IMG/VR virus record: IMGVR_UViG_3300045988_036631 | Location: 1-44,213 of that record | Length of the DNA stretch: 44,213 bases | Strand: one strand, 5' to 3' | Source of the DNA: a virus | Shown here: piece after piece, positions 1 through 44,213 of the stretch | Position numbering within the stretch: the first letter of the stretch is position 1 | Layout of the letters: each line of letters begins with the position of its first letter | Position numbers and translations under genes: made by a program | The notes under the pieces: model-generated | Told to the model about the DNA's origin: nothing | The model's database searches: none | What the model saw: only the letters and a program-made list of their open reading frames with translations

Positions 1-99
1 CTTGCTTCCGTCAACGGGCGGGCATTTGCCTTGCAAAACATATTCGCGCCAAAAGTAGTCCTCGGCGGAGATGAGCGCCTTGATCTGGTCTTCGTTCTC
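1..99. repeat. Terminal direct repeat, identical to 44115-44213; indicates a circular or closed contig
   Basis: The string cttgcttccgtcaacgggcgggcatttgcc...ttcgttctc is read identically at both window ends (99 bp). Confidence 0.95.
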
Positions 100-2339: not shown

Positions 2340-3149
2340 ATGAAAAGAATCGTTGCTCTGTTGGCTCTGATGTTTGCTCTTCTTCCCGTGCACGTCACGG
2401 CTGAGAACGAGATCGACCCGAAGGATTGCATACCGTTCCCGGCTGACTGTAAAAAAGCGGATGTCGCCATGGCTGCTCTGTATGCCGTTGATATCCCCAA
2501 CCCCCAGAATTACGAATGGAGTTCAAACACGGAAGATTTGCATTTCACGGAAGACGGAGTTTTTTCGCTCTTGGGTGAAAAAGGTACATTAACAGGCGTT
2601 CCGAAGGACGGAAGCGGAAAAACGATTAAAATTTCTGTGTCAGCCCCCATACCCTTTTTCAGCTCGAAGAATATCGTTGTCGATTCGCCGGAAGGCGAAG
2701 AATTGTTAGTCCGTACCGGCGGCGGATTTATTATGGTAGGCACAAGCGGCGACGACTGCTTCACCAGCGAAGAGATTGAGGGAAGAAAATATGGTTTTGC
2801 TGATGCGTACCGAATCATGCCCAAAAAAGAGGGCAAGGGCGCAATCATCTACACGATAAACATGAGCAAGAAATACAAGATCAACATCACGGTCAAAAAG
2901 TCCGCGCTCATGTCTGAAGAGGAACGGCAAGCCCTGATAGAAAAGGCCGGGGAGAACGCAAAAATTGTTATCGCGGAAAAGAACGTGAACGTCCGCGCTG
3001 ATGCGTCCGCTGATGCCGAGAAGGTCGGAAGCATCAAGGCCGGTGATGAAGTGATCGTCACCCAGCCGTACTATACGAAAAAGTGGCACCAGATTCTCTA
3101 TGACGGCGAGCTGTGCTATGTTTCGGCAAGCTATCTTAATGTCAAATAA
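2340..3149 (+). CDS. Secreted protein with C-terminal SH3b-like domain (moron)
   Basis: Signal peptide MKRIVALLALMFALLPVHVTA/ENE. C-terminus NVNVRADASADAEKVGSIKAGDEVIVTQ...WHQILYDGELCYVSASYL is SH3_3-like. Locally lower GC. Confidence 0.75.
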   Translation: MKRIVALLALMFALLPVHVTAENEIDPKDCIPFPADCKKADVAMAALYAVDIPNPQNYEWSSNTEDLHFTEDGVFSLLGEKGTLTGVPKDGSGKTIKISVSAPIPFFSSKNIVVDSPEGEELLVRTGGGFIMVGTSGDDCFTSEEIEGRKYGFADAYRIMPKKEGKGAIIYTINMSKKYKINITVKKSALMSEEERQALIEKAGENAKIVIAEKNVNVRADASADAEKVGSIKAGDEVIVTQPYYTKKWHQILYDGELCYVSASYLNVK

Positions 3150-4049: not shown

Positions 4050-5159
4050 ATGGCAAAAGCAAAAAAGCTACCGTCCGGGAACTGGCGAACACAGGTTTAC
4101 CTCGGCAAGGATGCCGCCGGAAAGCCAATCGTTGAATCCTTCACCGCCTCGACCGCCCGCGAATCTGAGCGTCTCGCCGCCGTCGCTGCTGCCGATCACA
4201 AACGGAAGAAGAAGCAAACGCTGACGCTTGGTCAGGCAATGGACGAGTTTATAGACACGTGCAGGGTACAAGGCTATTCGCCGTCCACGCTGAGGGGATA
4301 TGTCACCATCCGCAAAAACAGCTTCCTGTCGCTGGTCAATGTGAAGCTCGATCAAATCACGCCCCGCGATGTGCAAAAGGCACTTGACGACCGAGCGCGG
4401 GCGCACACGCCGAAGACGGTCAGAAATGACTATTTCTTACTCAAAACGATTTTGGAAAAAAACGTTCCCGATCTACAGCTTAATGGAATCGTCCTCGCAA
4501 AGCTCAAGCGGAAAAAGAAGCAGCTCTTTTCCGAAAAGTGGGCGGGCGACGTTCTCCGCTACGTCGCGGAACGCTGGGAGACGGATTTTTACCTCTACTG
4601 CTGCTTCATCATCAGCGCGGGCTTGCGCCCCTCTGAGGCGTATGCTCTGACGTGGGGGGATTTGTCCGCGTCTCCCATTGACGCGCTGGATTCGAGCGGC
4701 AGGACGTACAGGATCGGCACAATCAACATTGACAAGGCGATCGTTCGCGGCGAAAAGGGGTTCCAGCCCAAAGGGACGAAAAGCGACGCGGGAGAGCGCG
4801 TCCTGCGCGTTGACTGGTCTTTCTTTGAAAACCTTTACGACGCAAAGCCACGAGGAAAAGACGACGAACAGGTTTTCCAGATGAAGCCCAGCCGCGTTAT
4901 TTACAGATGGGATATCACGCGCAAAGACCTAGGACTGCCGGAAACCATGCGCTTTTACGACCTGCGCCACTTCTTCGCAACGTCCGTCGCATACTCCGGC
5001 GCATCCGAGGAAGAACTTGCCCGCGTCATGGGTCATTCCACATCCGCTTTCTCCCATCAGGTGTACGTCGAGCTTTTCCGTGAACGGCAGGATGAAATCA
5101 ACGCCAAAATGGCGGCGGGAACAGCCGCCTTGTACGGGTCTGTTTCGGCTAAAAAATAG
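4050..5159 (+). CDS. int: Tyrosine recombinase / phage integrase
   Basis: C-terminal catalytic pattern RFYDLRHFFATSVAYSG...LARVMGHSTSAFSHQVYVE (R..HxxR..H..Y). N-terminal SAM-like arm. Adjacent to attP. Confidence 0.95.
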   Translation: MAKAKKLPSGNWRTQVYLGKDAAGKPIVESFTASTARESERLAAVAAADHKRKKKQTLTLGQAMDEFIDTCRVQGYSPSTLRGYVTIRKNSFLSLVNVKLDQITPRDVQKALDDRARAHTPKTVRNDYFLLKTILEKNVPDLQLNGIVLAKLKRKKKQLFSEKWAGDVLRYVAERWETDFYLYCCFIISAGLRPSEAYALTWGDLSASPIDALDSSGRTYRIGTINIDKAIVRGEKGFQPKGTKSDAGERVLRVDWSFFENLYDAKPRGKDDEQVFQMKPSRVIYRWDITRKDLGLPETMRFYDLRHFFATSVAYSGASEEELARVMGHSTSAFSHQVYVELFRERQDEINAKMAAGTAALYGSVSAKK

Positions 5160-6169: not shown

Positions 6170-6592
6170 TCACGCCTGCCGCGTGACGATCAGGTTTGCG
6201 TTGGCAACGTCAATCGCTTGCGCACTGGTGTTTTTCAGCGCGACGGTTACGCAGCATCCGCGCGGCACATCGACAAATGCGGAGACGGAGACGTTGAAAT
6301 AGTTTTCGACCGCCGCAGGGGTGACGATAGCGACGGCACTATTCAGCGGCTCGCCGTTTATGGTCAGCGCAACGGAGATCGCTCCAACCGTTCCACCGGT
6401 CGGAATGGCAATGTTCCCGGTGAAGTCCACAAAGTACCGTGCTCGGCACTGGTTTGTCAGGCCGCGAAGTGTTACGATTCCCGCGCCCTCTCGATGGACG
6501 ATGCACGGAGAGCCGCAAATCGGCGTTTCGGTCAGCGGTAGATTCTGGCCAGCCGCGACAAGTGCCGTGCTGGCGTTGGTATACTCAGCCAT
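6170..6592 (-). CDS. BclA-C-terminal / C1q-TNF-like jelly-roll domain protein, 140 aa
   Basis: Pattern QNLPL...G..IVH..GAGIVTL...RYFVDFTGNIAIPTGGTVGAISVALTINGEPL......VALKNTSAQAIDVANANLIVTRQA resembles the BclA C-terminal domain. GAAAGGAG RBS. Confidence 0.5.
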   Translation of the reverse strand: MAEYTNASTALVAAGQNLPLTETPICGSPCIVHREGAGIVTLRGLTNQCRARYFVDFTGNIAIPTGGTVGAISVALTINGEPLNSAVAIVTPAAVENYFNVSVSAFVDVPRGCCVTVALKNTSAQAIDVANANLIVTRQA

Positions 6593-6706: not shown

Positions 6707-7528
6707 TTAGCAGTTACAACCGGCGTTGGCAGCGCAGCCGTAACCGTATACGCCCGTGTAGGGGTTCGGCACCTGATACGCGGGGACAGCGACGGGCTGA
6801 CGCAGCGCGTTAATGATCTGCGCCGTCTGCGCTCCCATCTCCGTGGTCAACAGTGCGGACTGACGATCCTGCGACGCAGCGCGGCGAAGATCGGTGTTTT
6901 CCGCCTGCAACGTTGCAATCTTGTCCTGCGTGAGGAAGTCGAGAATCGCGCGGCTGTTGGCGTTCTGGTTGTCGATCACGTCGCGGGTGTTGTTGTTGAG
7001 CGTGTTCTGGATGGCGCAGAATCCCTGCTGCATCTGGTTTCGCGTGTCGCAAGCCTGAGTAGCGAGGTTGTAATTCACGCCCTGAATCGCTTCGCGCGTC
7101 TCGCAGCAACAGTTAGCCTGCTGCATCTGCATTGCGAAGAGCTGCTGCATGAGCGCCGCCTGCTGGTTCGCGCGGGAAAGCTCCGCCGCGCTGAAACCGC
7201 TATTGACGGCGTTGGTGATGGCGTAGGTGCTGTCACAAAGCCCGTTCTGGATAGCGCGAATGCCGCTGTCAATGCCGTTGATGGCAAAGCCTTCGTTGAT
7301 GTCCGCGCGGGTCGCGTAGCCCTGGAAGCCCGGAGAATTTGCGCCGTTGTTGCCGAAGCCGCCGCCCCAGCCCATGCCGCCCCAGCCGCAGAACATGAAG
7401 AGGAACAGAACGATGATACACCACGCGCCGTTCCCGTCTCCAAACATGCCGCCGTTGTTGCGATTTCCGCCCGTTACCGCCGCGATATCGGCAGGGGTCA
7501 TTTCAGAGGTAGTCAAAGACATTTTCAC
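6707..7528 (-). CDS. Membrane-anchored Gly-rich / Gln-Asn-rich Cys-containing protein with double-glycine-leader-like N-terminus, 273 aa
   Basis: N-terminus M(K)MSLTTSEMTPADIAAVTGG / NRNNGGMFGDGNGAWCIIVLFLFMFCGWGGMGWGGGFGNNG. This is followed by a Q/N-rich region with a CCC motif and the tail GYGCAANAGCNC. Alternative ATG at 7522. Confidence 0.65.
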   Translation of the reverse strand: MKMSLTTSEMTPADIAAVTGGNRNNGGMFGDGNGAWCIIVLFLFMFCGWGGMGWGGGFGNNGANSPGFQGYATRADINEGFAINGIDSGIRAIQNGLCDSTYAITNAVNSGFSAAELSRANQQAALMQQLFAMQMQQANCCCETREAIQGVNYNLATQACDTRNQMQQGFCAIQNTLNNNTRDVIDNQNANSRAILDFLTQDKIATLQAENTDLRRAASQDRQSALLTTEMGAQTAQIINALRQPVAVPAYQVPNPYTGVYGYGCAANAGCNC

Positions 7529-8638: not shown

Positions 8639-8671
8639 AAAAAAAGGACGTGCACCTATCAGATGCACGTC
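8639..8671 (-). terminator. Strong intrinsic terminator after the 118-aa gene
   Basis: Minus strand: GACGTGCA-tctgatagg-TGCACGTC-CTTTTTTT. Confidence 0.8.
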
Positions 8672-8691
8672 ATGTTTATATCAGGTTTTTG

Positions 8692-9048
8692 TCAATCCTC
8701 GACCTTGAGAATCGCCAGTACTGTCGGATAGCTCAAAATGATTTCGCCCTCATCCTCACCATATCCGCTCATCTTATTGTCACCCAAGAGCAGCACATAT
8801 CGGCCAGGATACTCATTATTGGTATTAGCCATCGCGCTGTATATCGTCGCACATACACCGTCGAGTTCTTCCTCCGTCTCTTCGCCATCCACCCAAACTC
8901 GGCTGTTGTGGATGACCTTGTCGCCAACTTTCAGGCCGAAGGTTTCCTCTTGAACGCGGATACCGATGTAGGCATAATCTTCTTCAAACGCCTCCATATC
9001 AATTTCCGCGTTTTCAATCGCCTTGCGAACCGCCTTGTTGCTTGCCAT
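8692..9048 (-). CDS. Strongly acidic hypothetical protein, 118 aa (monocistronic moron)
   Basis: Roughly 25 D/E versus about 10 K/R, counted by eye. AGGAGGAAAAAG RBS. Has its own consensus promoter and terminator. Confidence 0.65.
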   Translation of the reverse strand: MASNKAVRKAIENAEIDMEAFEEDYAYIGIRVQEETFGLKVGDKVIHNSRVWVDGEETEEELDGVCATIYSAMANTNNEYPGRYVLLLGDNKMSGYGEDEGEIILSYPTVLAILKVED

Positions 9049-9091
9049 AACTTTTTCCTCCTATCGGTTTCTTCCTTGTTCTTATGGCTAT

Positions 9092-9120
9092 ATTATACAT
9101 CATTTTAATTTACTTGTCAA
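9092..9120 (-). promoter_or_regulatory. Consensus sigma70 promoter (copy A), with A/T-rich upstream element
   Basis: Minus strand: TTGACA (9115-9120 rc), 17 nt spacer, TATAAT (9092-9097 rc). The -35 lies inside the palindrome ACTTGACAAGT. TTTGCAAA palindrome just upstream. Confidence 0.8.
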
Positions 9121-9155
9121 GTGTTTTGCAAATTATTTTTATTTATTTTTAAGTC

Positions 9156-9182
9156 AAAAAAACTCCCTGCGCAAGGCAGGGA
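9156..9182 (-). terminator. Intrinsic terminator after the 245-aa gene
   Basis: Minus strand: TCCCTGC-cttgc-GCAGGGA-GTTTTTTT. Confidence 0.75.
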
Positions 9183-9189
9183 ATAAACG

Positions 9190-9927
9190 CTATTGATCTG
9201 GATCATCCGGTTTGCGCCTATGCGCTGGCGTGATAGGCAGAGACAGCAGCCCCCAATCCTTATAGTGATACACAGATCCCTTACACGATGGATTGCCTCG
9301 CATGCATGCCGCGATCTTTTGAAATCCCCGCGCGATACGGTTCGCAGCATCGTCTCGCTCCTCTTCCGGAGTTTGCGGCTCAAAGAGCCGATAATTGTTG
9401 CGCGCCCAGTCGAGCAGATTGGTGCATGGCACTTGATTCCCACTCGGATCGACCAGCACCCATATTTTGCTTTCGCGATTTTGCGGCCCACGCTGTCCCT
9501 CCGGGATCGCAAGCGCCGCTTGCACGGCACGCGGTCGCAGCTCGTCCATCTGTGCCTTAATGTCAGGGTCTTCCGCGCGTCGCCTTTTCGCGTCCTCTCC
9601 CCACTTGCGCGGCTTGTCATGCGACGACTTCGCCGCCCGAAGACGGCGGCAGGCATCCGAGCAGGTCACGCGGTTGTCCGAGCGGTATGAGTCAAACGGC
9701 TTTCCGCAGATCACACACGTTTTTGTGATCTTCCCAACCGCCTTGCATCCGCACGATGTAGTCTTGCCCGCAATCAGATTACTCGCATAGTACGACTTTA
9801 CGCTGCCGCATCTCAGGCATTCCGCGTCGCATTGTGTCTTAGACGACGCCTCCGGCAGTCGCCAGATCCTCAAAACCTTGAGATCGCCAAACACATTGCC
9901 GACCTGCATGTTGAGCTTGCGCGGCAT
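9190..9927 (-). CDS. Zinc-ribbon protein, possibly a degenerate homing-endonuclease-like DNA binder, 245 aa
   Basis: N-terminus VGNVFGDLKVLRI...CDAECLRCGSVKSYYASNLIAGKTTSCGC plus CVICGKPF...CSDAC. C-terminus SKIWVLVDPSGNQVPCTNLLDWARNN. GGAGG RBS before ATG 9927. Confidence 0.6.
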   Translation of the reverse strand: MPRKLNMQVGNVFGDLKVLRIWRLPEASSKTQCDAECLRCGSVKSYYASNLIAGKTTSCGCKAVGKITKTCVICGKPFDSYRSDNRVTCSDACRRLRAAKSSHDKPRKWGEDAKRRRAEDPDIKAQMDELRPRAVQAALAIPEGQRGPQNRESKIWVLVDPSGNQVPCTNLLDWARNNYRLFEPQTPEEERDDAANRIARGFQKIAACMRGNPSCKGSVYHYKDWGLLSLPITPAHRRKPDDPDQ

Positions 9928-9929
9928 AG

Positions 9930-10412
9930 TCAGCGCCTCCAAAACTCGCCGCCAACGAAGACGCGAGGCAATCCCCTATACATTACCACCGTGTCTTCGC
10001 CGCGCGCGTCAACCCAGCGCGCGGCGCCGATCTCATCGACGGTCATAGGCTGCTCACCCTGCCAGTCCGCGAGGGTAAACTGCATACCCTCAGACTGGAT
10101 CACAGCAATGATCCCGACGTCTGGGTGCTCGACGAGGTAAAAAATGCCGTAATCGTCGATCACCGTCTCGGCCACGATGGGCAGCGCCTCCGTGCGCCCG
10201 GTCTGCCAGTCATAGACTGCCAACCGCTGCGCGTCGCCCCGCAGATATGCCGCCGAAACGCCCAGCGCGTCCGCCAGCGCAGGCAGAATTTTGTTTCCGG
10301 GGTTGCTCTGCCCCCCCTCGTAATTGTTGAGCTGTTGAGCGGATATACCCATCTTATCCGCCAGCTCTTTCTGTTTCAATCCGCGCAAGACGCGCAGCTG
10401 TTTAATGTTCAT
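9930..10412 (-). CDS. XRE-type HTH fused to an unknown C-terminal domain, 160 aa
   Basis: MNIKQLRVLRGLKQKELADKMGISAQQLNNYEGGQSNP HTH, then about 95 aa with no recognised motif. GGGAGGGAGGAG RBS. Confidence 0.8.
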   Translation of the reverse strand: MNIKQLRVLRGLKQKELADKMGISAQQLNNYEGGQSNPGNKILPALADALGVSAAYLRGDAQRLAVYDWQTGRTEALPIVAETVIDDYGIFYLVEHPDVGIIAVIQSEGMQFTLADWQGEQPMTVDEIGAARWVDARGEDTVVMYRGLPRVFVGGEFWRR

Positions 10413-10431
10413 GGTTTTTCTCCTCCCTCCC

Positions 10432-10782
10432 TTAAAATATTACTTGCGGCTTGTAATCGCCGCTCTCACGGTCGTAGTGCATCAATGTCAGATGCACGCC
10501 GTTTTCCGCGCACGCGGCAATGACTGCCGCCATGGCTGCGGTCAATCCGGTGACGTAGACCACCAGCTCACGACGGCCACAGAAGCACGACGTGTCTGTG
10601 TAATCGTTGCCGTTGATCGGCTGGGTGTACGCCGACTCAACGCCCACGCGGTCAAGGACAAACTTAACCGCGACCGCCCGGAGGCCGTCGAAATCCAACG
10701 GGTTGACGGTCTCCGGGTAGATGTATTCCGTCACCGGCAGCGGATGACGGGAAGCGCAAAGACCGCAAATTACCTTTTCCAT
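10432..10782 (-). CDS. Hypothetical protein, 116 aa
   Basis: GGAAAGGAG RBS. C-terminal strand-helix-strand-looking ELVVYVTGLTAAMAAVIAACAENGVHLTLMHYDRESGDY. No family recognised. Confidence 0.6.
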   Translation of the reverse strand: MEKVICGLCASRHPLPVTEYIYPETVNPLDFDGLRAVAVKFVLDRVGVESAYTQPINGNDYTDTSCFCGRRELVVYVTGLTAAMAAVIAACAENGVHLTLMHYDRESGDYKPQVIF

Positions 10783-10847
10783 TTTTTTCTCCTTTCCGCC
10801 GCGCTGGTGCGGCAGTCGAAAAATTGCGAACAGTTTCCGCCTGGCAC

Positions 10848-11216
10848 TTACCAGACGTAGGCGCGCGCCGCGCTCAGCCGTCTATAACCGCGAGGCGGGC
10901 AGTTATCTTCCACTCTGCAAATGCGCAGAGTGGAACCTCTATCGCTGAGCTCGTCCGTCTCCTGCATGAGGATATAACGCCGCCCCGCGGAAAACTTCGG
11001 GCGATCCACAAAGAGCCAATCGCCATAGCTCTCCGCCAATGCGGCATAATTTGCGCCGACCAGCCGACGCGCAGACTTGCCGAGCAGCGGCTTTCGCGCC
11101 GGGATAAAGCTCCATTCCGGTACATCGCCGGATTCCTCCGCGATATACCGATCAGAATAGGCCAGCGCTTTGTTAAGGCGCTTCATTTGCTTCTTGATGG
11201 TTCTCCATTTTTTCAT
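10848..11216 (-). CDS. Hypothetical basic protein, 122 aa
   Basis: First gene after promoter copy B. AAAAGGAGGAAAAAATT-ATG RBS. Confidence 0.6.
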   Translation of the reverse strand: MKKWRTIKKQMKRLNKALAYSDRYIAEESGDVPEWSFIPARKPLLGKSARRLVGANYAALAESYGDWLFVDRPKFSAGRRYILMQETDELSDRGSTLRICRVEDNCPPRGYRRLSAARAYVW

Positions 11217-11298
11217 AATTTTTTCCTCCTTTTTTACGCGGCGACGAGTGCGCCGGTCATGTTGTCGATGTTTTCCTTGTTCCTTATGACTGTATTGT

Positions 11299-11327
11299 AT
11301 TATACATCATTTTAATTTACTCGTCAA
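11299..11327 (-). promoter_or_regulatory. Near-consensus sigma70 promoter (copy B), with A/T-rich upstream element
   Basis: Minus strand: TTGACG (11322-11327 rc), 17 nt spacer, TATAAT (11299-11304 rc). The surrounding roughly 110 bp is near-identical to 9070-9182. Confidence 0.8.
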
Positions 11328-11363
11328 GTGCTTTACAAATTATTTTTATTTATTTTTTGCATT

Positions 11364-11390
11364 AAAAAAGCCCCTGCCATCAGGCAGGGG
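11364..11390 (-). terminator. Intrinsic terminator closing the late/lysis operon
   Basis: Minus strand: CCCCTGCC-tgat-GGCAGGGG-CTTTTTT. Overlaps the stop of 11380..11607. Confidence 0.8.
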
Positions 11391-11607
11391 TGTTATCATC
11401 TGTATATATAGATGCAGACATCCGTCTTTTAATCTCGCGAATGCTGCGGCTGACAGTTGCGGGCGACATGCCCAGTGTCATGCTGATCTGCACAATGCTG
11501 TAACCGCGCCAGAGCAGGTCAAAGACCTGTCCCAGCCGGACGTGCTCGTCAAAGCCGCAGCGGCGGGCGATTTCCTCTTTCGTGCGCCTGTCAAAATCAA
11601 GGCGCAC
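11380..11607 (-). CDS. Small sigma70-region-4 / LuxR-like HTH protein, 75 aa
   Basis: LLWRGYSIVQISMTLGMSPATVSRSIREIKRRM. GTG start with GGGAGG RBS. Confidence 0.6.
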   Translation of the reverse strand: MRLDFDRRTKEEIARRCGFDEHVRLGQVFDLLWRGYSIVQISMTLGMSPATVSRSIREIKRRMSASIYTDDNTPA

Positions 11608-11623: not shown

Positions 11624-11953
11624 TTACACGCTGGCTTCCTCGACCACTACGGGCGCGGTGCTCTCCAACTTTGCAATCTCAGCGTTCACCAGCTCGACAA
11701 GCTCATCTGTATCCAACTTATATCCGTGCGCGTCAAGCCGCTCCTTTACCCACGCCAGCTTTTCTTCTCCGCGCCCGGAGCCGGTGTACAGCTTTTCGGC
11801 GGCGAATACGAGGATAGACACGAGGTCGCGGATTTCGCGCCGCTGGTCAAGCGTCGTCTTGGCCTTGATCCACGGGACGACATACCGCGTAATCAGCGCG
11901 GCCACGAGGACGATCAGCGCCTGGAAGATGGGGGTCAGGTCGATATTAGACAT
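11624..11953 (-). CDS. Holin, LL-H-like family, 109 aa
   Basis: MSNIDLTPIFQALIVLVAALITRYVVPWIKAKT TM segment followed by AAEKLYTGSGRGEEKLAWVKERL. Located in the lysis cassette. Confidence 0.75.
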   Translation of the reverse strand: MSNIDLTPIFQALIVLVAALITRYVVPWIKAKTTLDQRREIRDLVSILVFAAEKLYTGSGRGEEKLAWVKERLDAHGYKLDTDELVELVNAEIAKLESTAPVVVEEASV

Positions 11954-11992
11954 AGATAGCCTCACTTTCTGCCCGGTTTTTGCCGGGCGATG

Positions 11993-12436: not shown

Positions 12437-13210
12437 TCAATCCTCCGCAATCGTCCATTTTCCCGCCAGCGTGATATACACGCCGTCGTTCCTGCGCAGG
12501 GTCGTCGTGGCCAGTGCTTCGCCGCCCGTCTCGTCCTGATCCCCGCTTTCCGGCGGCGCATCCTCGACAAGATATTTGCTGGACATGTACCCGGTATCGC
12601 CGTTTTCCAGCTTGCCGAACACCCAGCCCGTGCCGCCCGCCTCGCGGATGACGTTCACCCGCGCGCCGTCTGCGGCTTTTGCGATGACCTTTGACCGAGT
12701 GCTTGCGCCCTCACGGATGTTGAGATATCCGCTGGTCACGCTCACCGTTGCATTGCCATACATGGTCTCACCTCCTTCCGCGTTATCTGAATAACTGATC
12801 GCCTTTAGCGGGGCGGCGAACGCCCAATTTTGCGACGCGGGCGACGCGACAAAGCCCGTCTTGGTGCTCTGCGCGTTGAGCACACGCCCATCCTGTCCCA
12901 TCAGGCCAATGTGATAGCAGTCGCCGGGCTGCTGGTCAAACCAGCGGTTGCCGCTGTCGTCCTCGCGCCACTCGCGCAGCTTGAAGACCGCATAGCCCGG
13001 CTTTGCCTCCGATACGGGCACATACTCGCCAACGCGCAGATGCGCAATAGAGTTGCTTCCGTGCTCGATTGTCGCGCCAAGCTGCTTATACGCCCAGACA
13101 AACGCGCCCGAACAGTCTACACAGCCCTCGCGCGCCGTGCCCAGCTCATACGCCCAGTGCTCGTCCAGCATGCGTTGAAAGAGATTGATCAGTGCGCTCG
13201 CCTTAATCAT
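12437..13210 (-). CDS. Endolysin: NlpC/P60 peptidase plus SH3b, 257 aa
   Basis: GCVDCSGAFVWAYKQLG (Cys) and GDCYHIGLMG (His). SH3b-like GYLNIREGASTRSKVIAKAADGARVNVI...GYMSSKYL. GGGAGGTG RBS before ATG 13210. Confidence 0.9.
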   Translation of the reverse strand: MIKASALINLFQRMLDEHWAYELGTAREGCVDCSGAFVWAYKQLGATIEHGSNSIAHLRVGEYVPVSEAKPGYAVFKLREWREDDSGNRWFDQQPGDCYHIGLMGQDGRVLNAQSTKTGFVASPASQNWAFAAPLKAISYSDNAEGGETMYGNATVSVTSGYLNIREGASTRSKVIAKAADGARVNVIREAGGTGWVFGKLENGDTGYMSSKYLVEDAPPESGDQDETGGEALATTTLRRNDGVYITLAGKWTIAED

Positions 13211-13301
13211 CCCACGCACCTCCCGCGCGGATGAAGCGGCCAACCAGACAGCCGGCCGCGAAGATGATCGCGCCGCCGACGATGATACCAAGAATAATCA
13301 T
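13203..13301 (-). CDS. 32-aa single-TM peptide overlapping the endolysin start (not in the ORF track)
   Basis: My translation: MIILGIIVGGAIIFAAGCLVGRFIRAGGAWDD. GGAGGCAAAACC-ATG RBS. Its stop overlaps the endolysin ATG. Confidence 0.45.
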   Translation of the reverse strand: MIILGIIVGGAIIFAAGCLVGRFIRAGGAWDD

Positions 13302-27893: not shown

Positions 27894-28860
27894 TGTGCGC
27901 CTCCTTCCATCCCGCCCACTCCGCATAAGTCTTAAACGGTATTGTGTCGCGGGTGATGTTGTCGAGCCGCGTCTCATTTCGCGGCGGATATTTTGGATTG
28001 TACGACACGAGCGTACAGCGGCAGTTGTACACATTCGCGGGTCTTGCGTTCGGGTCGCCCGGACACATGATCTCGCCCAGCTCGCTCTGAAACGGCTTGT
28101 CTACGTCCACCCGCTGCCCGTCAAGCATAGCGTGGGAATGGCGCGTGTGGTTGTCCAGCGTCGCCCGCCACTCCTTTTGCAGCTTGATACCCAGCTTTGC
28201 CGCCTGATGATAGCTTTCAATGCGCCCTGCGTTCTGCGCGTAGGTCATCGCGGTTCTCGCGTGTCGCCTTGCGCTGGCCTCATTCGCCGTCGTCACACGC
28301 TGCAATCGCTTCACGACCGTCTCAAGCGGTTCGCCCTGAATGATGCCCTGCGTGATCTGCTGCGTGATCTGCATATGATTCCAGCGCTTGTCTGCTGGTA
28401 TATCCACCTTTGACGGCGGCAGAAGGTCTGGCTGGTCGCGGATAAGCTGCTTGACGGTTGATGCGTCGTATAGCTCAAAGCCCATGTTTATCCGTGCGCC
28501 CTTTTCAAGCATATAGCTCGACCAGTTGGCATTATAGGCAAACGCTTCCGGGGTCGTGTCGTTGATGATCTGCATAGCAAGCTCGTTGCTGTGCGTCAGC
28601 GTCTCCGTCAGGTTGGCAAGCATCTGTCGCCAGCGTTTCCCCTGAAACACTTGCCCTGCCAGCCAATCGCGATACGTCTCTTGCGTGATCTCTCCCGCTT
28701 CGAGCTGCGCATGATATTTTTTATCATCCCTGCGGAATTTCGCGATGAACTTACCCAGCTTGCGCTGGATATCAGCCGCCGCGTCGGTGTATACGTCGCG
28801 GATGCGCCGCTCTAGTTCTTCAATCTGCTTGTCAGTCCATTGAACCGCCTGATCTGTCAA
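27820..28860 (-). CDS. Head morphogenesis protein (SPP1 gp7 / Mu F family)
   Basis: RHARTAMTYAQNAGRIESY...WRATLDNHTRHSHAMLDGQRV...PGDPNARPANVYNCRCTL. Confidence 0.9.
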   Translation of the reverse strand: MTDQAVQWTDKQIEELERRIRDVYTDAAADIQRKLGKFIAKFRRDDKKYHAQLEAGEITQETYRDWLAGQVFQGKRWRQMLANLTETLTHSNELAMQIINDTTPEAFAYNANWSSYMLEKGARINMGFELYDASTVKQLIRDQPDLLPPSKVDIPADKRWNHMQITQQITQGIIQGEPLETVVKRLQRVTTANEASARRHARTAMTYAQNAGRIESYHQAAKLGIKLQKEWRATLDNHTRHSHAMLDGQRVDVDKPFQSELGEIMCPGDPNARPANVYNCRCTLVSYNPKYPPRNETRLDNITRDTIPFKTYAEWAGWKEAHNGGKPDRQQRGVSGRTGTRKGVGA

Positions 28861-30058
28861 GCGCCGTCACCCCCGCCGCGTTCGCATAAACCCGTTCTCT
28901 CATCAGTTTCCCGGAACCTTTCCCGCTGCTAAGTGATCGCTTGTCGCACTCAAAAACGCGTGTGAAGCGCTTGTCCTCCACCTTGTAACTGCTGATAAAT
29001 ACGGGAGTTTTCTGTTTCGCTGCCCAATTAAAAAAGGATTCGTGGTCGAATCCTTCATAAATTCCGCAATCTGTATCTTGATACGGAATATCTGCGTAAA
29101 TCACGCTATTTGGTGGAATTTTTACGTTTTCATAGCTTTCAAACGAGATTTCCAGCCTTTCCAGCCTTTGCAGCCTTTCCAGCCTTTCCAGCCTTTGCAG
29201 CCTTTCCAGCCTTTCCAGACTTTGCAGACTTTGCAGACTTTGCAGACTTTGCAGACTTTGCAGCCTTTGCCTGAGCCTGTACAATCCGACAAGCTCATTG
29301 TAATCGTCAGGAAGCGGCATAAATTCCTGCATACGTTGGTACATTTCCCGCGTCGGGAACTCCCATTGTGAGCGCCCGAAGTAATGCCCGGCCATCTGCG
29401 TTCCGAGACGACGCTGAACCTCGGCCTGCGTCAAGCCTGACGTTTTCAAGGCTTTCAGTAGATACGCCCTCAGCTCTTCCTCGTCTCTCTCGATATCTGC
29501 TTTCGCGTTTTTAATCAGTTCGTCAAGCTCTGCTGGGGAATATTTCTGATGTGAAAGCCACCACCGAATATATTTCTCCTTGTACTCGGCTTCATGCGCC
29601 AGAACGTCCGCGCGGCTTCCGTCTCCTTCGATTCCCATATTTTGCAGGAGGAATGTGTCACCAAAAACCCGCGCATAGTGCAGCGCTTTTTTCCATGGTT
29701 CTATTTCCTGCGCATATAGATAGTCGATCCCGTTATTCCCGAAGCTCCAACAGTATCTAACATACGGGTCAACATCTTTCAGCTTTTGAAACGTTTCTCG
29801 ATCAATCCAGCGCTTTTCATCCGCATACTCTCCGCATATTGCGCCCTTGAACAGTTTCAACGGCATTTCGCAAATGTCGTTCGCTATAATCCGCTCCCAC
29901 TTCGGGGCAAGGCCTTCACAGCTTTCGAGTGCCGCATGTGTTATGGCGCAACCGCCAGCGCAGATATCAATCAAAACATCAGCAGGCGGAAGAAAACTGA
30001 CTATTTTTCGCGCTATGCTGTTTTTGCTCCCTTTGTACGGTATGCCATAGCGCTTCAC
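28832..30058 (-). CDS. D12-class (Dam-like) N6-adenine DNA methyltransferase with internal tripeptide repeat
   Basis: N-terminus YKGSKNSIARKIVSFLPPADVLIDICAGGCAIT (AdoMet motif). C-terminus VIYADIPYQDT (DPPY-type motif). GTGA start overlaps the portal stop. Confidence 0.85.
   Translation of the reverse strand: MKRYGIPYKGSKNSIARKIVSFLPPADVLIDICAGGCAITHAALESCEGLAPKWERIIANDICEMPLKLFKGAICGEYADEKRWIDRETFQKLKDVDPYVRYCWSFGNNGIDYLYAQEIEPWKKALHYARVFGDTFLLQNMGIEGDGSRADVLAHEAEYKEKYIRWWLSHQKYSPAELDELIKNAKADIERDEEELRAYLLKALKTSGLTQAEVQRRLGTQMAGHYFGRSQWEFPTREMYQRMQEFMPLPDDYNELVGLYRLRQRLQSLQSLQSLQSLQSLERLERLQRLERLERLQRLERLEISFESYENVKIPPNSVIYADIPYQDTDCGIYEGFDHESFFNWAAKQKTPVFISSYKVEDKRFTRVFECDKRSLSSGKGSGKLMRERVYANAAGVTALDRSGGSMD
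29151..29267. repeat. 13 tandem 9-bp units (t[c/g]cag[c/a]ctt), in frame within the methylase gene
   Basis: Units counted from 29151. They encode (S/R)L(Q/E) x13: RLQSLQSLQSLQSLQSLERLERLQRLERLERLQRLERLE. Confidence 0.95.
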
Positions 30059-41484: not shown

Positions 41485-42217
41485 AACTCATCCCTCCCTT
41501 GCTGTCAGGTGGCTTGTCCGTCCATGTGTATCCTCGCTCTTTCTCCTTGCGAAGAATGCCCTCGACATACCGCCAACATCGGCTTTTTTCTGTCGCTCCT
41601 TGAGTTTTGTTTATGGCTTTCAGCAGATTTTTGGCTCCGTATTCAGCCCTGAGTCTGTCCATCGCGTCAAAGTCGCCCGAAGCACTGGCGGGTAAACCCA
41701 TGCGCTTTGCAGCAGCCTCCACGTCTGCCTGTTCTTCCCGCATTCGCCGCAGTTCGTCGTCCGTCACGTCGTCGTAGGGGTTTGGGGTTACGTAACCACC
41801 ACCAATATTCTTTTCTTGTTCTTTTACTTGTTCTTGTTCTTGTATATATGCGTTTTGCTTGACGTTGCTTTCGTCTGCTTCCGGTTGCTTGGCTTTGCTT
41901 GACTTTGCTTGGCTTTGCTTCAATGTGCTTGCGTTTGCTTCCGTCTGCTTGACGTTGCTTTCGTCTGCTTCCGGTTGCTTGGCGCTTCCGCCTTTTTTCC
42001 CGCTTGCTTTCTTTGCTTCCAAGGATTCAGCGCACTGATCGATTTTAAATTGAAGCGTGTCCCAGACATACCATTCCGGCGCGTTCTCGCCAAACGTCGG
42101 CAACTCGCCACGGTAGGCATAGGCCATCATGGCCATAAAAAGCCGTCCGCGCTGTGCGTCATCATATCGTTTGAGAAGGACTTCGATGTCCGGGAAAACC
42201 TTCAGATAATCCAGCAT
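41444..42217 (-). CDS. Replisome organizer / replication initiator (DnaD-like C-terminus) containing the origin repeats
   Basis: N-terminus MLDYLKVFPDIEVLLKRYDDAQRGRLFMAMMAY. Repeated KQPEADESNVKQ. Precedes the DnaB gene. Confidence 0.75.
   Translation of the reverse strand: MLDYLKVFPDIEVLLKRYDDAQRGRLFMAMMAYAYRGELPTFGENAPEWYVWDTLQFKIDQCAESLEAKKASGKKGGSAKQPEADESNVKQTEANASTLKQSQAKSSKAKQPEADESNVKQNAYIQEQEQVKEQEKNIGGGYVTPNPYDDVTDDELRRMREEQADVEAAAKRMGLPASASGDFDAMDRLRAEYGAKNLLKAINKTQGATEKSRCWRYVEGILRKEKERGYTWTDKPPDSKGGMSYGRSVPKSHERDL
41851..41980. repeat. 13 consecutive 10-bp units each ending TGCTT (AAGCA on the coding strand); putative ori iterons
   Basis: cgttttgctt gacgttgctt tcgtctgctt ccggttgctt ggctttgctt ... 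Includes a 33-bp exact direct repeat at 41861-41893 and 41951-41983. Flanked by a T-rich/TATATA stretch at 41806-41850. Confidence 0.85.
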
Positions 42218-43784: not shown

Positions 43785-44213
43785 TTATGCCTCCTTGACC
43801 ATGAATCGGCGCGTAGGTGCGCCAATCTTGATGTATCTGTCAACGATTTCGGGGTGTTCCTCTGTGAGCCGCTTGGTGTCGATGGTCTTTCGCGGACTGC
43901 TGTTTTTCCAGCTCACGATGTAATTCGCGCTTTCTCCGCGCTCAGATTCGCCCATGCACTCCTTGATACGCTGCTCATACAGGGCTTTATCTCCCTCAAG
44001 CTCTTTGATTTTGCTTGTCAGCGTCATGTATTGGCTGATTGCATCGTCGCAGTCAAGCGTGATGGTCGAGCCATCAGATACGGGATAGCGCTTGGTCAGG
44101 ATTTCTTCCGCCGCCTTGCTTCCGTCAACGGGCGGGCATTTGCCTTGCAAAACATATTCGCGCCAAAAGTAGTCCTCGGCGGAGATGAGCGCCTTGATCT
44201 GGTCTTCGTTCTC
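43785..44213 (-). CDS. YqaJ-type exonuclease, C-terminal part (same gene as 1-624; 44115-44213 duplicates 1-99)
   Basis: The frame is continuous with 1..624 through the 99-bp overlap. The joined gene is about 317 aa. Confidence 0.9.
   Translation of the reverse strand, partial: ENEDQIKALISAEDYFWREYVLQGKCPPVDGSKAAEEILTKRYPVSDGSTITLDCDDAISQYMTLTSKIKELEGDKALYEQRIKECMGESERGESANYIVSWKNSSPRKTIDTKRLTEEHPEIVDRYIKIGAPTRRFMVKEA

Follow-up and report, generated by a model that had tools for sequence, protein, structure and literature searches.

Results

Organisation of the locus

The IMG/VR virus record IMGVR_UViG_3300045988_036631, analysed here over its full length of 44,213 nucleotides (the window), comes from a temperate, uncultivated gut phage of the Caudoviricetes and contains, at about 8672-11379, a 2.7-kb accessory island that is discrete, dispensable, autonomous and rapidly reshuffled. 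The island holds two cassettes under one shared consensus promoter module, the larger being a four-gene unit, and all of its elements lie on the minus strand. The four-gene cassette opens with promoter module B (11299..11365), in which a UP-like A-tract precedes the core TTGACG-17-TATAAT (11327..11299; 11 of 12 matches to the sigma-70 consensus). Behind a leader that carries a short deletion scar follow gp122 (10848-11216, 122 residues) and gp116 (10432-10782, 116 residues), both in swappable, putative effector slots; gp160 (9930-10412, 160 residues), the conserved anchor of the island, which combines an XRE helix-turn-helix (HTH) with a C-terminal domain; gp245 (9190-9927, 245 residues from its ATG), a zinc-ribbon protein of DNA-binder type; and an intrinsic terminator with a 9-bp stem and a T-run (9184..9162). 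The second cassette is driven by promoter module A (9092..9150), an A-tract followed by TTGACA-17-TATAAT (core at 9120..9092; 12 of 12), and has gp118 (8692-9048) as its sole gene, after which a terminator with an 11-bp stem and a T-run (8671..8647) forms the distal boundary of the island.

An earlier note on this DNA had described a promoter, genes for proteins of 122, 116, 160 and 245 residues with good ribosome-binding sites, and a terminator, and all of these were confirmed at their minus-strand coordinates. GGAGG or AGGAG stands 7-9 nucleotides 5' of the start codon in each of the four genes. Pairwise comparison among related loci gave ratios of non-synonymous to synonymous substitution (dN/dS) of 0.28 for gp122, 0.17 for gp116, 0.08 for gp160 and 0.09 for gp245; the range is 0.17-0.31 for the small genes and 0.04-0.11 for the flanking genes, with gp75 at 0.07. 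Because they have full-length homologues and dN/dS values typical of purifying selection, gp122, gp116, gp160 and gp245 are taken to be real genes.

The island in related phages

The comparison covered about 40 related phage contigs, whose loci were gathered through gp122, gp160, gp116 and the flanking gene gp75; the sample obtained with gp75 is unbiased for gp160. One side of the island is bordered by the lysis module, the other by a conserved block of genes ahead of the integrase. On its left gp75 is 85-99% identical over all related loci (mostly 95-99%), and the downstream genes gp131, gp148, gp93, gp273, gp140 and gp128 are 90-100% identical (again mostly 95-99%). Between these flanks, 31 loci show 25 gene orders. 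The slots upstream of gp160 are filled from at least 11 unrelated small families, exchanged combinatorially among close relatives: a 98-residue family that opens the cassette in 15 loci (C3), an acidic family of 117-196 residues (C5), gp116 itself (C6; 6 loci), gp122 (C8; 5 of the 31 loci), a 149-residue family that precedes gp116 in the five other loci that carry gp116 (C11), and families C12, C13, C14, C16, C17 and C34. After gp160 stands gp245 (11 loci), a 93-residue protein (17 loci) or a 200-residue protein with four zinc ribbons (2 loci), and the second cassette contains either a 182-residue protein (C1; 19 loci) or gp118 (C15; 3 loci). The swappable families are 71-212 residues long, several of them strongly acidic, and searches of Pfam, PHROG, NCBIfam and PADLOC gave no match for the swappable proteins, the zinc ribbons excepted.

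The constant element is gp160, present at 74-97% identity in 33 of the 34 informative loci selected through gp75, that is, those with enough downstream DNA. The exception, L161, is an empty site (6190-6340) at which gp75 runs directly into a terminator closely similar to that at 8647-8671; the downstream block comes next, and promoter module and cassettes are both missing. Traces of earlier contents are found as well. The 8-codon remnant MTGALVAA-stop in the leader of promoter B (11234-11260) is identical to the C-terminus of C3, and since C3 opens the cassette in 15 related loci, we regard this remnant as a deletion scar. In L035 (4568-4984) an in-frame fusion joins gp122 to the C-terminal 17 residues of gp116 (...LMHYDSESGDYKPQVIF), a further deletion scar, which shows that some ancestor had gp122 and gp116 as a pair.

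Promoter and leader modules

Promoters A and B are the only sites that score above 9/12 in a scan of the 4.5-kb region, in agreement, for B, with the earlier description as near-consensus; the scan returned 9 promoter-like sites, compared with 3.1 ± 1.8 in shuffled sequences. The 29-nucleotide promoter core occurs exactly twice in the 44-kb window, where none would be expected by chance, and modules A and B belong to an 80-nucleotide direct repeat with 86% identity. Each cassette opens with the same module of about 140 nucleotides, comprising a terminator, an A-tract, a consensus sigma-70 promoter and a conserved leader with GGAGG, and each closes with an intrinsic terminator. In the related phages the promoter/leader module was found in 52 copies, usually two per genome, before at least 7 different first genes; the recurring block consists of the terminator, A-tracts, TTGACAAGTAAATTAAAATGATGTATAAT and the leader CATAAGGAACAAGGAAAACAACCTGAYCGGAGGAA. 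In a conservation profile of 45 non-identical copies the A-tracts, TTGACAA, parts of the spacer, the -10 element and the ribosome-binding site stand out.

The conserved 5' leader (9040-9092 and 11217-11298, minus strand, together with the 52 related leaders) contains three GGA motifs, AAGGAA, AAGGAA and GGAGGAA, the third of which overlaps the ribosome-binding site. This layout resembles CsrA-type binding-site arrangements. No Rfam family scored above threshold on the promoter and leader. A match to the structured RNA RAGATH-17 at 11293-11389 (minus strand) was rejected as sub-threshold (35 bits against a gathering cut-off of 102; E = 0.004 in 251 nucleotides); it spans the terminator, A-tract and -35 element of copy B, leaves copy A unmatched, and is probably an artefact of composition and the hairpin.

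The HTH anchor gp160

As the earlier note had recognised, gp160 is an N-terminal XRE HTH (residues 2-58; HTH_3, E = 1.3e-15) fused to a second domain, which is clade-specific and predicted to be β-rich (residues ~60-160). The best PDB relatives of the HTH are the 434 repressor, DdrO, the N-terminal domain of CapH (CapH-NTD) and SinR, and weak matches to XRE antitoxin models (HipB, PezA and MqsA-type) fall far below the family cut-offs. The C-terminal domain, of about 100 residues, is always fused to this HTH, in proteins of 159-165 residues, with at least 79% identity among the best 120 matches. In structure prediction, which the earlier note had proposed as a check, the AlphaFold2 (AF2) model has an overall predicted local distance difference test score (pLDDT) of 65.8; the C-terminal domain is modelled as β-rich with low confidence, its pLDDT being too low to support a fold search, and its profile finds nothing in the PDB. 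Foldseek matches centre on the HTH; a few extend further, along HTH-cupin-type proteins, at root-mean-square deviations of about 12. The 55 PDB sequence matches of gp160 at E ≤ 1 include no chain named as an anti-CRISPR (Acr), an anti-CRISPR-associated protein (Aca) or AcrIIA1.

The length of gp160 tracks the gene downstream. The 159/160-residue form always stands before gp245 or the four-ribbon protein, and the 164/165-residue form precedes the 93-residue protein, except in L020; because the length form follows the downstream gene, a recombination breakpoint is placed within the 3' end of gp160 (9930-9945 in the window). A role for gp160 as the phage immunity repressor is ruled out by the separate cI/cro pair, the integrase and the relative that has no gp160. 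The window has its own cI-like HTH and integrase, and the related contig L125 carries cI/cro and a recombinase.

The zinc protein gp245

The 245-residue protein had been described as a zinc-ribbon protein, and this holds: the treble-clef ribbon C71/C74/C89/C93 is invariant in a family of 404 representatives. Three modules can be distinguished, a CapR-type zinc finger (residues 9-64), the treble-clef ribbon (66-100) and a 9KJA-type domain (~123-232). This C-terminal domain matches PDB entry 9kja_A, a 111-residue 'HNH endonuclease', with E = 1e-5, and the family profile matches it over its full length with E = 9e-18. The N-terminal finger is an addition found in many family members, gp245 among them; its cysteines are spaced C37-x2-C40-x18-C59-x-C61 (CxxC-x18-CxC), and the consensus of the relatives is WxCxCxCG...SCGC. 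Only the zinc-ribbon parts align with PHROG 1271 and 374 ('HNH endonuclease'), and matches of that name in PHROG and the PDB are together confined to the zinc-ribbon and C-terminal modules. Pfam gave no HNH model and no AP2 model (AP2 at E ≤ 0.1). Some relatives are fused to HTH_3 or HTH_23, and a tblastn search gave one unannotated match. On this sequence evidence gp245 is read as a sequence-specific DNA binder, derived from a homing endonuclease and free of the nuclease. Zinc binding was also considered for gp116 and rejected, its four cysteines being unconserved in the family, which leaves gp245 as the sole zinc protein of the four.

gp116, gp122 and gp118

At 90% identity the family of gp116 falls into about 80 clusters, all without a name and so far all from phage or mobile-element contigs. 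R12, H13, Y76-V-T-G-L80, H102, R105, Y110 and Q113 are invariant. The AF2 model (pLDDT 92.9, predicted template-modelling score 0.85) is of a small α/β domain ending in a β-hairpin, a confidently predicted fold that appears to be new. Foldseek found nothing significant in the PDB (best E = 2e-3, with a template-modelling (TM) score below 0.5), although weak matches include several CARF, SAVED and ring-nuclease chains, namely Cam1, Cap4 SAVED, Sis0455, Sso2081 and Csm6 (TM 0.36-0.47, probability 0.15-0.72). Profile searches of the PDB, Pfam and PADLOC came back empty, with no consistent sequence link to CARF or other defence families. In BFVD the matches are to uncharacterised viral proteins only, one of which, a 386-residue 'HTH domain protein', contains the domain.

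Elsewhere, relatives of gp116 are located directly after cI/cro and in arrays of small early genes. In L122 (7001-9933) and L129 (8001-10933), two versions of one large phage, a 119-residue homologue lies 13 nucleotides upstream of a gene for a 480-residue polynucleotide kinase joined to a T4-Rnl1-type ligase, which is followed by a 124-residue gene and a metallophosphatase; judged by sequence, these genes look like a split Pnkp-type RNA-repair cassette. The relatives in early lytic regions and next to RNA-repair genes include one on a contig about 99 kb long, of which the 13 kb examined contain no lysogeny gene. Tandem gp116 paralogues occur in L079 (5001-5741) and L080, where the second copy has lost the invariant motifs (GRHE reads GQNE, and YVTGL reads YAIGF), suggestive of a degenerate partner subunit.

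The 23 relatives of gp122 are all close (72-100% identity), so that it is an orphan restricted to this phage clade, and it has no match in Pfam, PHROG, PADLOC or NCBIfam. The 118-residue gp118 has an isoelectric point (pI) of 4.3 and a net charge of -15, and matches only PHROG 18666, whose function is unassigned. Its charge pattern resembles that of DNA mimics.

Genome context

The first and last 99 nucleotides of the window (1-99 and 44115-44213) are identical, and because these ends match exactly the window is taken to be complete, a phage genome of about 44.1 kb assembled as a circle. GenBank phages show essentially no DNA similarity to it. The order along the minus strand is lysis genes, island and conserved block, followed by the integrase on the other strand. 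The lysis region comprises the endolysin (12437-13291; NlpC/P60 and SH3_3 by domain matches), a 146-residue protein, the holin (11624-11965) and gp75 (11380-11607), a small 75-residue HTH protein that matches HTH_38 and GerE in Pfam; with gp75 the lysis/late block ends, and the same gene serves as the conserved flank to the left of the island. This late unit is closed by an intrinsic terminator (11390..11371; 8-bp stem with 7 GC pairs, and a T-run) that is conserved in related loci and lies directly upstream of promoter B. The position after the lysin genes, to which the earlier note had drawn attention, is thus borne out, with both endolysin and holin upstream.

Beyond 8647 lies the conserved six-gene block, gp131 to gp128 in minus-strand order. 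Within this block gp273 (6707-7528, minus strand) encodes a Gly/Asn/Cys-rich protein with a hydrophobic segment, AWCIIVLFLFMFCGWGG, and no family matches. The integrase (4050-5159) and the cI-like HTH (1721-2083) are on the strand opposite to the island, and between them, on this lysogeny-module strand, is a second SH3_3 protein of 269 residues (2340-3149, plus strand). Two repeat arrays are found in other parts of the genome. At 29122-29286 about 18 tandem 9-nucleotide units (TTTCCAGCC / TTTGCAGAC) sit inside a long minus-strand open reading frame (28832-30058) and therefore encode a tripeptide repeat, and at 41856-41983 there is a 10-nucleotide periodicity (TGCTTnnnnn, at least 9 units) with two identical 38-nucleotide blocks 90 nucleotides apart, possibly an iteron- or origin-like array or a coding-region repeat.

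Discussion

A possible anti-defence island

What is the function of an island that is exchanged so freely between such constant flanks? The best-supported reading, to which our analysis gives somewhat less than an even chance, is that it serves in counter-defence. A consensus promoter can work without any phage factor, and transcription of the island would therefore begin as soon as the DNA enters, and possibly occur from the prophage too. As effectors, the small proteins would act in counter-defence or host takeover, and gp160 would regulate the promoter modules of both cassettes by feedback, much as Aca proteins and the N-terminal domain of AcrIIA1 autorepress strong acr promoters (bioRxiv 10.1101/787200; PMC9410906). 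A sequence-specific silencing of transcription in the manner of CapR and CasPR could be the role of gp245, the target being either a host defence gene or the island itself. For gp116, the invariant Arg-His, Thr-Gly and His..Arg residues fall in the model at Rossmann-like phosphate-binding positions, and the protein would most likely bind or cleave a nucleotide or an RNA end. The variability of the island, its empty site, the deletion scars, the gp160 anchor, the reuse of the promoter, the lack of database matches for the small swappable families, the separate cI-like HTH and integrase, the CapR-type finger of gp245 with its HTH-fused relatives, and the early- or counter-defence-type positions of gp116 relatives all speak for counter-defence. 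The locus is thus partly supported as an HTH-anchored accessory or anti-defence island, fitting a known kind by its architecture, and we treat it as a lead.

Several points weigh against this reading. The evidence on the island is guilt by association, and its proteins have no homologues among known Acr, Aca, anti-defence or defence proteins in Pfam, PHROG, PADLOC or NCBIfam; for gp160 in particular, NCBIfam and Pfam return generic HTH_3/XRE models and neither an Acr nor an Aca model. gp122 is basic (pI 10.0) rather than acidic. A host search through the GTDB representative genomes gave unrelated HTH matches only and so points to no target defence system. The earlier note had also proposed that palindromes over the promoter could be an operator. 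Measured against composition-matched shuffles of both promoter regions, however, palindromes occur at chance level (P = 0.56 for 8-mers, P = 0.22 for the 5+1+5 type), and in the 52 related promoter copies ACTTGACAAGT is intact in 29 (56%) and the perfect 8-mer near -45 is present in 32 (62%). With a shuffle-level frequency and a conservation of about 60%, these palindromes were rejected as the operator. The 45-copy conservation profile shows no dyad in or near the promoter, and a repeat finder set to inverted repeats of at least 8 nucleotides shows terminator stems only, plus AT-rich imperfect pairs. An operator may exist in a sequence that itself gives no evidence for one. What survives of the proposed acr/aca-like locus is the island organisation, the HTH anchor, the promoter and the terminators; homology to Acr, Aca or anti-defence proteins, of which there is none, and the operator do not. 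Finally, a promoter and terminator of its own at the junction of lysis genes and integrase is the classical layout of a 'moron', or lysogenic-conversion locus, and such loci often carry exclusion or defence genes.

Alternative explanations

Because the anatomy of the island is that of a classical moron, a cassette that serves the lysogen is a serious rival, although we consider it unlikely. The constitutive promoter would then express the island from the prophage to protect the lysogen or to compete with other mobile elements, with gp160 and gp245 silencing superinfecting phages, as CapR does, and the small proteins excluding them. This would suit the autonomy of the cassettes, which have a promoter and a terminator each, their place between lysis genes and integrase beside the lysogeny module, and the polymorphism for presence or absence of the island; it would also suit the two DNA-binding proteins, one of which, gp245, has a finger of the type found in CapR, a repressor of a phage operon (PMC8096241). 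Yet the variable genes encode very small soluble orphans (71-212 residues) rather than typical enzymes or membrane proteins, and relatives of gp116 are found in early lytic regions and beside RNA-repair genes. The earlier suggestion of a defence or exclusion module thus keeps the moron-like anatomy in its favour, whereas PADLOC finds no defence-system protein beyond generic HTH matches. A more domestic role, in which gp160 and perhaps gp245 would regulate the late genes, lysis timing or induction of the phage itself and the small genes would be neutral passengers, is improbable. It would account for the strong constraint on these two proteins (dN/dS 0.08-0.09), for the near-universality of gp160 in the clade and for the small HTH gene gp75 directly upstream, but it does not sit well with L161, which lacks the island and gp160 while its flanks are intact, or with the separate cI/cro pair. 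Nor would neutral passengers be expected to be under purifying selection (dN/dS 0.17-0.31) or, like gp116, to be conserved over many unrelated phages.

Two further explanations both score very low. If gp245 were a functionless remnant of a homing endonuclease and the operon a junkyard of mobile fragments, its construction from homing-endonuclease-type modules without the nuclease, and the deletion scars in the island, would follow naturally; this is very improbable in view of a dN/dS of 0.09 among 11 full-length copies and of a family in which upwards of 400 representatives have the cysteines unchanged and the C-terminal domain intact. Least probable of all, to the point of being scarcely credible, is a reading in which the XRE-HTH protein would be the antitoxin, and a neighbour the toxin, of a toxin-antitoxin or abortive-infection pair. 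The sub-cut-off matches of the gp160 HTH to antitoxin models are what speaks for it. No neighbour, however, matches a toxin family, gp245 is read as a DNA binder, and the partners of gp160 are interchangeable, since the gene after it is one of three unrelated proteins and the genes before it also swap; the toxin-antitoxin alternative of the earlier note is accordingly set aside.

A possible role for gp116, and significance

A more specific proposal can be made for gp116, although it is a speculative one that we think rather unlikely: that it represents a new phage effector family which binds or cleaves a phosphate-containing small molecule or an RNA end. Examples of what it might act on are cyclic-oligonucleotide immune signals and RNA termini with a 2',3'-cyclic phosphate. 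This would be in keeping with a family confined to phage or mobile-element contigs, the confidently predicted fold, the invariant Arg-His, Thr-Gly, His..Arg and Tyr..Gln residues, the weak CARF-type structural matches, the HTH-fused relative and the relatives located directly upstream of a kinase/ligase RNA-repair gene. If the proposal is true, gp116 would be a new way to disarm signalling-based or RNA-cleaving defence, and the gp160-anchored island would provide a handle on about 12 further anti-defence families in gut phages. Importantly, gp116 reaches far beyond this clade and, having a confidently modelled fold and a putative active site, lends itself to direct biochemical testing.

Most anti-defence genes have come to light because they lie beside a conserved HTH marker, and the phages of gut Bacillota are poorly covered by the markers in use. 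Should gp160 prove to be such a marker, the clade would offer at least 11 candidate effector families, together with the acidic gp118 and an AP2-less CapR-like binder. Should the island serve the lysogen instead, it would illustrate compactly how one promoter module can be reused to express exclusion cargo. On both views, the 25 architectures together with the empty site constitute a well-defined natural experiment.

Comparison with known systems

The closest parallels to the organisation of the island are the acr-aca operons (Aca1-13), which have in common with it a strong constitutive promoter, small swapped genes, a conserved HTH marker and a terminator of their own. There are differences, however. 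The HTH gene comes last in those operons, whereas gp160 is not the last gene of its cassette, and the island has no family-level similarity to Aca proteins, no inverted-repeat operator and no upstream gene resembling a known Acr. The AcrIIA1-anchored loci of Listeria and other Bacillota, which in Listeria sit downstream of the lysin, share with the island an N-terminal HTH joined to a second domain of about 90-100 residues, variable small neighbours and a temperate phage of Bacillota type. The earlier comparison of gp160 with AcrIIA1 is therefore sound as regards architecture but does not extend to homology beyond the generic XRE HTH; the C-terminal domain of gp160 is β-rich in a model of low confidence, and it has no PDB match to an anti-CRISPR. 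The acr promoter, moreover, contains a conserved palindrome to which AcrIIA1 binds (bioRxiv 10.1101/787200), whereas the island spacer AGTAAATTAAAATGATG has none.

For gp116 the nearest comparison is with CARF proteins and ring nucleases, which are likewise small Rossmann-like α/β domains ending in a β-hairpin. The CARF proteins also share the two places of its conserved loops, one behind strand 1 and one behind the strand leading into helix 2, and the CARF-HTH protein Csa3 has an HTH fusion in an arrangement like that of the HTH-fused relative of gp116 in BFVD. gp116 differs in having only two helices.

For gp245 the comparison is with a class of DNA binders assembled from homing-endonuclease modules. 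CapR, which has a CxxC-x24-26-CxC finger, is a satellite (PLE)-encoded repressor of a phage operon that silences the capsid genes of ICP1 (PMC8096241). The CasPR anti-CRISPRs, which combine CapR and AP2 domains, have five conserved cysteines, C33/35/37...C56/58, with an x18 gap, and show that acr loci of Bacillota prophages can carry nuclease-free DNA binders of CapR type (bioRxiv 10.64898/2026.02.23.707548). The x18 gap is shared by gp245, as judged against the published pattern rather than a CasPR sequence. Like CasPR and CapR, gp245 is nuclease-free and built from homing-endonuclease DNA-binding modules, and, as for CasPR, its gene lies in a prophage accessory locus beside an HTH anchor. 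It differs from the HNH homing endonucleases in that Pfam detects no HNH catalytic domain, and from CasPR in that AP2 is absent, its place being taken by a second treble-clef ribbon and the 9KJA-type domain.

In its overall form the island is closest to the morons, a term that denotes a structural class and is silent on function. It shares with them an independent promoter and terminator between conserved genes, presence in some relatives and absence from others, and a position near the prophage end. Among morons it is unusual in using one promoter/leader module for two tandem cassettes and in having a dedicated HTH anchor.

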